From Eledone cirrhosa (Eukaryota), in contig OZ024746.1 of the NCBI GenBank assembly GCA_964016885.1, positions 60,450,001-60,514,000 on the forward strand: a DNA stretch of 64,000 bases, given 5' to 3'. Positions within the stretch are counted from its first letter, which is position 1. The number at the start of each line of letters is the position of its first letter. The notes beneath the pieces were generated by a model, which was not told where the DNA came from, did not search any database, and worked only from the letters and a program-made list of their open reading frames with translations. Position numbers and translations under genes: made by a program. Shown here piece by piece: positions 15,301 to 18,300 of this stretch.

Positions 15301-18300
15301 ATTGGCGAGATGGTTAAAAACTTTGTGGGTATTCACCAAGTCCATTTTGCCAGACGTCGGAGCTTCAATGAATCCATGCCCAGGGAAGCAAGGCGTTCAG
15401 AGTATGGCAGGTGTCTGATGGAGGGTATGCGCTTGGTTGCACGTCTCTGAACAGTTTCCAGGAGGTCAATGTTCTGAGCAAGATAGGGGTTCCAGACTGA
15501 TGATGCGAATTCCAAGTGTGGTCGTACCATAGCTGTATACAGTTTTAAATAGATGGCTGGAGAGCGGCTAACAAAGGTCTTGCTGAGTGATGCCAAGACA
15601 CCCTCGGCCTTCTTGACAATCTTAGAGACATGCTTTGTCCAACGCAAATCGTTGCTGACAGTAATGCCCAGGTCACGTTCACAAGAGGACTTTTTGATAT
15701 CAGTGTTGTGGAGGGAGTATGTGGACGCTGGATTTTTCCTTCCAAAATGCATGGTGGTACACTTGTCCACAGCCAGCTTCAGTTGCCAGTCTGTGATCCA
15801 TTGCTGCATTGTGTCCAGGTCTGATTGTATGAAAGAGTTGTAAATTTCAGGATCAGTCCTTTTGATTTCAAGGTACAGCTTGATGTCATCTGCATATTTT
15901 AGTACCGTGGCATTCTGTAAGTTGGCATCTATGTCGTTAATATATGCCACAAACAAAAGAGGACCAAGAACAGATCCCTGTGTTACACCAGATGACATCT
16001 CATATGGTGAAGAATGCTGTCCTAGAACCGTGACTACTTCTTTTCGGCTGAGAATGAAGGATTTCAACCAGTCGAAAAGATCATCCCTCACACCCATTGC
16101 AGAGAGTTTTGCCATAAGTCTTTTGTGTGGCACAGAATTAAAAGCCTTAGCAAAGTCAAGGTAAACAACATCCACCCATGAGCCGCTGTCAGTGATCCGG
16201 GTGATGTCCTCAAGGAACTCGATAAGCTGATCACAGCAGCTGGAGTTAGGGATAAATCCAAACTGTGAGGGCCGGATGAGGCTGTGAGAGCTCCAGAAGT
16301 TCCAAAGTGTTTCTCTGACACAGGATTCCATCAGTTTGGCCATACAGCTAGTAAGACTGACTGGACGATAGTTGACAGGTGACATGCGGTTGCCCTTTTT
16401 GAACAGGGGAATGACACTGGCAGTTTTCCACTGCTCCGGAGTAGCACCATTGCTGAGACAGTATTGAAAGAAGAAAGAAAGCTGGCGCAAAAGTAAATAC
16501 CCGCCACGTTTGAGAAGCAGGTATGTCACACCATCAAGACCAGGGGAGGCATAGTTGCGCTTATTCTTAAGGTGACGTCGCAACATTGCAGGTGTAAATT
16601 CCATAGTTGTTATGGAATTTGATGTTAGAGATGGTGGAGATGGTACATTCTGGTTTTCAACAGTAAAAATACTTGCAGAGCACTCAGCAATGAGTTCTGC
16701 GCATTCCTTGGGATCGTCAGTGATCTGGCTTGTGTGGGGATTGCAAAGAGGACCAACTGGAGAGTGAGGTCTCTGCTTTGAATGAACATATTTCCAGAAC
16801 ACCTTACTGTCAGGATTGGTTGCGATGCACTGTTCAAATTCAAGCACTGCCTTCTTTGTCACTTGCTTGAGATGGTTAGAAGATTTATTCCGCTTTTTTC
16901 TGTTGGCATCTGATCTATGCAGTTTATATTCCCGTTCAGCGTTCCAACGTTCTTTCCTGGCAAGTCGGACCGCTGAAGTTTCCCAGATTTTGGGGTGGTT
17001 ATTTTTCCGCTTCCGTGGCACTGATGCTGCACATGCTATCCATATTGTGTCCAGGATGCTCTGGAGTATAGAGTTCACATCTCCAGAGTTATACATCTCA
17101 TGCCAGTTTGGGCGCTGTAGCTCAGTGCAGTACAAGTTCCAATCCGTCCTCTTCCAATCAAAGCAAGCAGATTGGCTCTGGTTTTTGTTGCTGCCCTCAA
17201 GTGCCAGATTGGCAATGATCATAGCATGATCAGAGTCGCCTAGAGGTTCCTCAGTAGTACAACTGATAACCACCTCAGGAGTAGTGGTGAAGATCAGGTC
17301 CAAAGTGTTGTCACCTCTTGTTGGAGAGGTGACTACTTGTGACCAGTTTGAGTCCAGCACTAGTTCAAGGAAATCGTTTGCACCTTGTGGCCAACGAAAG
17401 GTTTCCCAATCGATCTCTGGATGATTGAAGTCACCTGCAATAAACACATAAGTGGCTGTTTTCTTGGCAGCAACTCTGAGGATATCGCAAAGCTGTGTGT
17501 CCTGATGGTAGTTTGGGGGGCGATAAACAACACCAAGCAGAAGTGTTGACATGGTCATACGTATGTCACAGAAAAAAACTTCTTCCTGTGATTCGTTCAA
17601 ATCAACGCAAGGAATTACCGAAAAGCTTGAACGAACGTAGACCATCACACCACCACCACGGCGGTTAATGCGGTCCTTGCGGAAAAGGTTGTACCCAGTA
17701 ATGCTGAAAACCCCATCACAGAGTAAGGAATGTGCCCATGTTTCCGTGACTGTGATGAAGTCAGGGTCGATGCTTCTGACGTAGGATTCGAACAGATGTA
17801 TCTTGTTGCATAAACTGCGAGCATTTAAGGACAACAATTTGTACCCTGCTCGCAGTTTATGATGGTGTGTAGAGGGTGGCAGGTTGTTCTGGTTTAGTTT
17901 CCCAGAGTTGTAGCAGTTTTTACATTGCCAGTTATTGTGGGTAGATCACACTCAGACCAGCTGGTATCTCTCTTCCACGTTTCACCAGCCTTGACAAACC
18001 TCCAGATCTGCCCATCATCACGCAGACTGAAACTTTCATCTTGTGCTGAGTTCCGATTCAAGGAAGCTGCAGCACGTAGCTTTGGACGTACATGGGGTGG
18101 TAGGCCTGGGCGTGTTCGGAAGGTAATCCGATTTTCATATGTATGACTGGGTGGATATTGACTGTTGTACTTAGTGTTAAAAAAATATATATTGCCACGA
18201 AAAAAATATTTTAAAAATCGTGAAAGATATTTATCATTTCATGAATATACGGTGGTTTCCATGGATAATTGTTAGTTAGGTTCTAAGGAAAATTCCGCGA

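Follow-up and report, generated by a model that had tools for sequence, protein, structure and literature searches.

The locus studied here raises the question of how a LINE retrotransposon expresses a second open reading frame (ORF2) in which the endonuclease is not preceded by a start codon. It lies in a stretch of 64,000 nucleotides of the Eledone cirrhosa genome (contig OZ024746.1, positions 60,450,001 to 60,514,000; assembly GCA_964016885.1), hereafter the window, whose numbering is used throughout; features are on its minus strand unless stated otherwise. One reading frame, that of ORF1 (18238-17894), reads ...ACT CTG GGA AAC TAA ACC AG across its end and has the C-terminal end ...TTLGN*. 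The heptamer G_GGA_AAC at 17903-17897 is in phase for a -1 shift, and the ORF1 stop TAA (17896-17894) follows it directly. The ORF2 frame (17945-15333) stands in -1 phase to that of ORF1; it opens after a TGA at 17948-17946, 14 codons before the heptamer, and reads through an endonuclease and then a reverse transcriptase. Its first ATG occurs at 17645-17643, 86 codons past the GGG codon and within the Pfam endonuclease match (ORF2-frame residues 39-240). An earlier reading of the letters without database searches, here called the sequence-only reading, had described the heptamer-plus-stop ending, a -1 frame leading into the endonuclease and the lack of an ATG until a Met inside that domain; the minus-strand sequence, the reading frames and the Pfam match bear out all of this. 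Its description of the site as an ORF1-ORF2 junction stands as well, with the correction that ORF1 is here merely a remnant: the copy is 5'-truncated at 18137, the frame above that position is flanking DNA, and about 80 codons of the ORF1 3' end are left (17894-18137, delimited by reading frames and copy comparison). A linker (17844-17896) with in-frame CTG codons at +15 and +42 and no ATG leads from the heptamer to the first endonuclease strand. By its frames and Pfam matches, ORF2 as a whole spans 15082-17903; in this copy it is broken near the 3' end by the stop at 15333, its tail running in another frame to 15082, and it is followed by a 3' UTR (14800-15081). This UTR contains an internal duplication and closes with a short simple-repeat tail, which is (ATT)n in other copies of the same subfamily. 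A second GGGAAACTAA at window position 62839 was set aside as a chance occurrence; it sits in A-rich non-coding sequence.

The element is an APE-type non-LTR retrotransposon, as is evident from its endonuclease and reverse transcriptase, dispersed copies, 5' truncation and 3' simple-repeat tail. ORF2 gives Pfam matches above cut-off to PF03372/PF14529 and PF00078, and the best PDB match of its profile is L1 ORF2p (E 2e-46); a single-sequence PDB search with the endonuclease gave 0 matches. In the 3.0 Gb genome searched for copies we distinguish two subfamilies, A, which includes the window copy, and B, with ~85% identity in the endonuclease. Among the loci examined from searches of this genome with P0002 and P0006 there were only A and B and no third family, and the counts from these searches are lower bounds. 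The family is young, and many copies are intact. In longer copies, ORF1 counted from its ATG has 430-457 aa (A) or 409 aa (B), and intact ORF2 has 942-943 aa counted from the heptamer (11 copies checked), with the first Met at codon 86 in A and at codon 67 in the B copies checked. ORF1 consists of a Cys-rich start, a Gln-rich middle and a RLGRPGPKPRLIRLSF motif; it has no Pfam family above cut-off and no significant PDB match, its Cys pattern and an RRM-like motif are conserved in a four-sequence alignment, and its relatives include proteins annotated as Octopus vulgaris (58-62% identity). The label CR1 is our assumption from its motifs, and we take the ORF1 motif RLG..PR.I.L.F to be of the CR1/L2-lineage type. 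A quick endonuclease tree, built without named references from an incomplete search, splits the element from another LINE family of the same genome. Subfamilies A and B have nearly the same 5' UTR (L140, L148-L150, L126, L127), and several copies break off at A-rich tracts.

A profile of 12 ORF2 proteins aligned to human L1 ORF2p (8sxt_A) places the Asn of LNARS (17823-17825) at N14 and the Glu of TETW (17742-17744) at E43, and we take both equivalent residues to be catalytic. PMC1965478 reports that the corresponding change in Zorro3, N17A, leaves transposition at <5%. An ORF2 begun at its first ATG would thus lose both the N14- and the E43-equivalent residue. No ORF2-frame ATG was found within 67 codons in the A or B copies checked, and a stop-adjacent AUG of the SART1 type is accordingly absent from them. 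The other LINE family of the genome is different in this respect: in a control search 27 of the 30 top endonuclease matches belonged to it, and 25 of these 27 loci have a Met shortly before the equivalent Asn.

Had the two-frame arrangement been private to the window copy, an indel there would have broken what was once a single ORF, or an ORF2 with an ATG of its own. The copy counts refute this. The exact 10-mer of heptamer and stop is present in 280 of 291 genome sites with subfamily-A flanks, and the B junction was found 185 times against 2 occurrences with an extra A. All of the first 30 loci have the junction, these loci having come from a query that contained it. Junction-free queries supplied an endonuclease sample (30 Pfam-search loci and 40 of the other 120, picked by match length), an ORF1 sample (30 loci and 40 picked from the list, long open frames being included deliberately) and an ORF2 sample (20 loci). 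Of 190 loci, 162 mapped to the family and represent 136 different sequences; 108 of these sequences came from junction-free queries and extend 5' of the heptamer. The site is intact, with ORF1 and ORF2 in -1 phase, in 89 of these 108 copies; 2 more are intact with an unreadable phase marker, 6 carry point changes within the 10-mer, 6 have the two ORFs fused in frame, and 5 have been shifted into the third phase. The fused copies, over-represented in this sample because long open frames were picked deliberately, stem from five different indels, and no deletion recurs among the 108. An origin from a single ORF could draw on these 6 copies and on the -1 frame before the heptamer, which reads WQCKNC like the end of a PHD finger; the copy counts and the presence of the same junction in L191, a relative described below, make such a private artefact practically out of the question. 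The reading of WQCKNC as a PHD remnant was itself rejected, there being stops in its place in B. Contrary to the two outcomes that, according to the sequence-only reading, would have refuted it, the two-frame junction is the state of the family and not an indel of one copy, and no in-frame ATG precedes the catalytic residues in A or in the B copies checked. Because copies decay neutrally after insertion, the counts speak for the state of the source elements, not for selection. Two B loci (L125/L157/L175 being one, L131/L172 the other) have ORF1 and ORF2 fused in an uninterrupted 1381-codon frame, each with a different small indel at the A run before the heptamer; they are either natural mimics of the predicted fusion or homopolymer errors of the assembly.

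Joining of the frames could also take place at the RNA level, through splicing, polymerase slippage in an A run, or A-to-I editing that makes an AUG. B indeed has GAAAAAA just 5' of the heptamer, and the 2 genomic copies with an extra A fuse the ORFs; but neither subfamily A nor L191 has the A6 run, and the 6 sampled fused copies, with their five different indels, are matched by the 5 in the useless third phase. For splicing there is a CAG at +6 to +8, yet its AG lacks a preceding pyrimidine tract, and no in-frame ATA codon is present for editing. We regard an RNA-level route as very improbable.

The junction was also compared between lineages. Majority letters of A and B show 15 differences over 60 upstream positions and 12 over 50 linker positions, against 0 over the 10 of heptamer and stop, a comparison that by itself is weak at that distance. 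Since a stop closes the ORF2 frame of B 3 codons ahead of the heptamer, a shift would be confined there to a stretch of about 5 codons. Contigs from runs X11 and X13, which are other organism codes (4 of 24 runs examined; RNA status of the contigs a guess), have the site as CAG GGA AAC TAA. Over 17796-17984 the X11 contig shows 11 substitutions and two 3-nt gaps, none of them in the 10-mer, and both bases adjoining the 10-mer (17904 and 17893) are changed. The metagenome contig L191, whose endonuclease matches P0006, is more distant, with 55% amino-acid identity and 17 of 52 four-fold sites identical, which amounts to synonymous saturation. Its ORF1, itself broken by an upstream frameshift, shows homology as far as the WCES motif; the tail beyond this motif is longer, is not related to that of the family and finishes in CAG GGA AAC TAG. 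Nor is the linker of ORF2 related, and a stop closes the ORF2 frame 2 codons before the heptamer. A relative with GGGAAAC and a stop, which the sequence-only reading had suggested looking for, thus exists, and its flanks are unrelated. Judged by these alignments (A/B, X11/X13 and L191, with DNA of one deep relative), the heptamer is conserved beyond its flanks. If only Gly-Asn were needed, the three silent bases shared by A and L191 would be kept by chance with a probability of 0.33 x 0.5 x 0.37 = ~0.06, which is not negligible. P0001, P0004 and P0005 were compared as protein only; P0001 (ORF1, 65% identity over the region searched) ends ...SVGN, and a metagenome scan for its DNA gave 298 pattern matches, none confirmed.

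We consider it likely that the junction is a programmed -1 frameshift site giving an ORF1-ORF2 fusion, the possibility raised by the sequence-only reading; anatomy, family state and L191 argue for it. Most ribosomes would stop at the UAA and release ORF1p (~430 aa), and a minority, with tRNA-Gly and tRNA-Asn on the heptamer, would slip one base back and continue through endonuclease and reverse transcriptase to give a fusion of ~1,370 aa. The stimulus might, speculatively, be slow decoding at the adjacent stop, a lineage-specific 3' RNA structure, or both. G_GGA_AAC counts among the most shift-prone eukaryotic heptamers according to PMC5009743. At the junction an in-phase X XXY YYZ heptamer lies inside the overlap of ORF1 with the -1 ORF2 frame. 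In the ORF2 frames of 53 LINE loci, in-phase X XXY YYZ heptamers occupy 121 of 37,480 codons (0.32%) and the four shiftiest heptamers 22 of the same 37,480 (0.06%); with a background of 0.06-0.32% per codon, chance is an unlikely explanation for a shift-prone heptamer that sits immediately before the stop. Frameshifting would also account for an ORF2 that, in A and B, lacks an ATG before the N14 and E43 equivalents.

RNA structure 3' of the heptamer fits less well. The pairings CCUGC/GCAGG and ACCCU/AGGGU proposed by the sequence-only reading are present in the sequence, but both draw on one set of AGG bases, so that they are mutually exclusive, and a longer hairpin displaces them; with their partner lost in subfamily B, they are not conserved, and a stimulatory role for them is not supported. 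For the 100 nt that follow the heptamer in A, the predicted fold has an energy of -29.3 kcal/mol (z -6.1 from 200 shuffles) and contains, in place of the proposed pairs, a long predicted hairpin from +36 to +88 (17809-17861), the 3' arm of which also codes for NARSLC. B keeps the outer 9 pairs, with one double-sided change (A-U to G-C), but most of its copies can no longer form 5 of the 22 pairs; its z of -0.3 to -1.8 is not significant. In L191 the +36 hairpin is absent and a different one opens at +6 (-14.6 kcal/mol). Spacers are usually 5-9 nt long and in a minority of cases 12-15 nt (PMC5009743), and the hairpin at +36 is therefore not a textbook stimulator; its position, its lack of significance in B and its absence from L191 count against frameshifting. 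No conserved stimulator was found at a 5-9 nt spacer in A and B, where the best structure opening at +3 to +12 reaches -4.6 to -10.2 kcal/mol. ACAAC at +10 to +14 (17883-17887) is able to pair with GUUGU in the hairpin top (+62 to +66, 17835-17831); this 5-bp pairing, the same in A and B and absent in L191, is a speculative candidate for a pseudoknot arm, obtained by a crude enumeration without loop energies, in which nothing but the hairpin accounts for the significance in A.

The same hairpin bears on termination-reinitiation of the L1/SART1 type, by which ribosomes would terminate at the UAA and, aided by the hairpin, begin ORF2 anew at a nearby codon other than AUG, such as the in-frame CUG 12 nt past the stop. 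On this view the heptamer would belong to a termination signal or follow incidentally from a conserved Gly-Asn C terminus. In both subfamilies in-frame CTG codons stand at +15 (with A at -3) and +42, and the strong hairpin begins ~20 nt past the first of them. The literature indicates that the best-studied LINEs use reinitiation, that SART1 requires a downstream structure, a role the +36 hairpin would also fit, and that L1 tolerates a sense codon in place of its AUG. L191 has an in-frame ATG two codons ahead of the catalytic Asn, which, with only one deep relative represented by DNA, also counts against frameshifting; a start at this ATG, however, would drop most of the strand aligned with L1 residues 6-13. 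Moreover, L191 has lost the CUG and kept the heptamer, its linker containing no in-frame CTG, GTG, TTG, ACG or ATH codon before strand 1, and reinitiation offers no reason for the fixed -1 phase and three fixed silent bases. On balance we hold reinitiation, the main rival reading, to be unlikely, though less remote than an RNA-level route.

The nearest known counterparts are -1 sites of the retroviral and LTR type, for example that of PEG10, whose heptamer we take to be G_GGA_AAC. PEG10 uses -1 frameshifting, according to PMC5009743. The junction described here shares with such sites the heptamer class, the phase and the placement of a structural protein upstream of a start-less reverse-transcriptase ORF in -1; it differs in that the element is a non-LTR LINE with an APE endonuclease, the stop directly follows the heptamer and no conserved pseudoknot was found at 5-9 nt. 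Among LINEs, Dictyostelium TRE5-A and TRE3-A are said in a figure legend of the review PMC5911963 to require a -1 frameshift for ORF2. They resemble the present element as APE-type LINEs with ORF2 in a -1 arrangement, but they belong to the L1 clade and to another host, and the legend gives no slippery site or assay. A -1 shift on G_GGA_AAC is well known, and one in LINEs is already stated for TRE5-A and TRE3-A; the mechanism is not established in the present class. The contrast drawn by the sequence-only reading with the reinitiation or coupling of L1 and SART1 would be overstated if extended to all LINEs, given TRE5-A and TRE3-A. SART1 couples its ORFs through UAAUG and needs structure 3' of the ORF1 stop, and mammalian L1 reinitiates. 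Both are like the present element in having a bicistronic LINE RNA with ORF2 dependent on ORF1 translation; their AUG lies at or near the ORF1 stop, whereas the present element has its first AUG only after 67-86 codons, beyond catalytic residues, and an overlap of the two ORFs in -1 phase. With CR1/L2-lineage LINEs of types IIC and IIIB (PMC4120745) the element has in common two ORFs, a Cys-rich ORF1 N terminus, an APE-RT ORF2, a simple-repeat 3' tail and many 5'-truncated copies; its ORF1 differs from their PHD+RRM type in having no significant Pfam or PDB match. The text of PMC4120745 contains neither 'frameshift' nor 'overlap'; further sources are PMC2881922, PMC2734521, PMC10275272 and PMC5972666. 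No report of -1 frameshifting in a CR1 LINE was found among titles and the beginnings of abstracts, including those on cephalopod LINEs, with thin coverage of the subscription literature. Older papers on CR1, T1 and Q elements may have put forward a frameshift already.

A survey of 158 LINE loci from metagenome and MAG contigs, the animal origin of which is inferred, suggests that related arrangements occur elsewhere. Of the 158, 53 include the endonuclease start together with upstream DNA, and 22 of these 53 have an ORF of 150 codons or more that lies upstream and overlaps with the ORF2 frame, in the -1 arrangement at 15 loci and in +1 at 7. An in-phase canonical heptamer occurs in 8 of the 15 -1 overlaps, where ~1.9 would be expected and the other two phases give 1 each; 7 of the 15 lack one, and 1 of the 15 has its heptamer directly before the stop. 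This excess is suggestive only, because the loci are partly related, 7 have no heptamer, and T-P-L, K-N or similar motifs of ORF1 could create heptamers. L270 (43% identity, in a neighbouring group of the quick tree) has A_AAA_AAC in phase within a 16-codon overlap without an ATG. L191 and L198, inspected by hand, stand outside the 15. The ORF1 of L198, which we take to be esterase-like, ends U_UUA_AAC UAG and that of L281 ends A_AAU_UUA UAG, the heptamer lying directly before the stop; both loci have in-frame ATGs upstream of the endonuclease. We put forward only tentatively, as a proposition whose chances are slightly below even, that -1 frameshift fusion might be the regular ORF2 route in CR1-group LINEs across animals, with heptamers that differ by lineage (G_GGA_AAC here, A_AAA_AAC in L270, U_UUA_AAC in L198, A_AAU_UUA in L281), often stand directly before the ORF1 stop and work without a classical pseudoknot. 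In a related CR1-like clade, L248, L250, L251 and L268 have G_GAA_AAC or G_GGA_AAC in phase within a -1 overlap, with an ENYRF/GNYRF motif in ORF1 and, in 3 of the 4, the heptamer right after the ORF2-frame stop; this heptamer could be a second frameshift site or reflect protein constraint. Many bacterial and archaeal MAG records within L270-L348 hold animal-type LINE contigs, which are probably host contamination of the bins.

How a bicistronic LINE RNA gives rise to ORF2p is understood for only a handful of elements (L1 and SART1), both of which use reinitiation. Were the frameshift reading true, the ORF1p:ORF2p ratio would be set by one mutable 7-nt site, and the enzyme would be covalently joined to the RNA-binding protein, perhaps a simple route to cis-preference. 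Annotations that start ORF2 at its first ATG would then miss the catalytic N terminus.

Elsewhere in the window, two long tandem arrays with open repetitive frames (11909-13393 and 13377-14584, plus strand) lie directly beyond the LINE 3' end, one of them with HHNTTT/PPQH units. A short segment flanked by (TA)n/(CA)n tracts (~18690-18815, minus strand), which lies upstream of the truncated LINE, is presumably tRNA-like and of SINE type. A 339-aa frame at 22254-23273 (minus strand) contains the C-terminal part of a reverse transcriptase and a GIY-YIG-like motif (VVYSIRC...YIGET), and we take it to be Penelope-like. On the plus strand, a 1040-aa frame occupies 31788-34910 without interruption; it has motifs of an endonuclease and of a reverse transcriptase and is apparently an intact LINE of another clade, which by its motifs we assume to be RTE-like.
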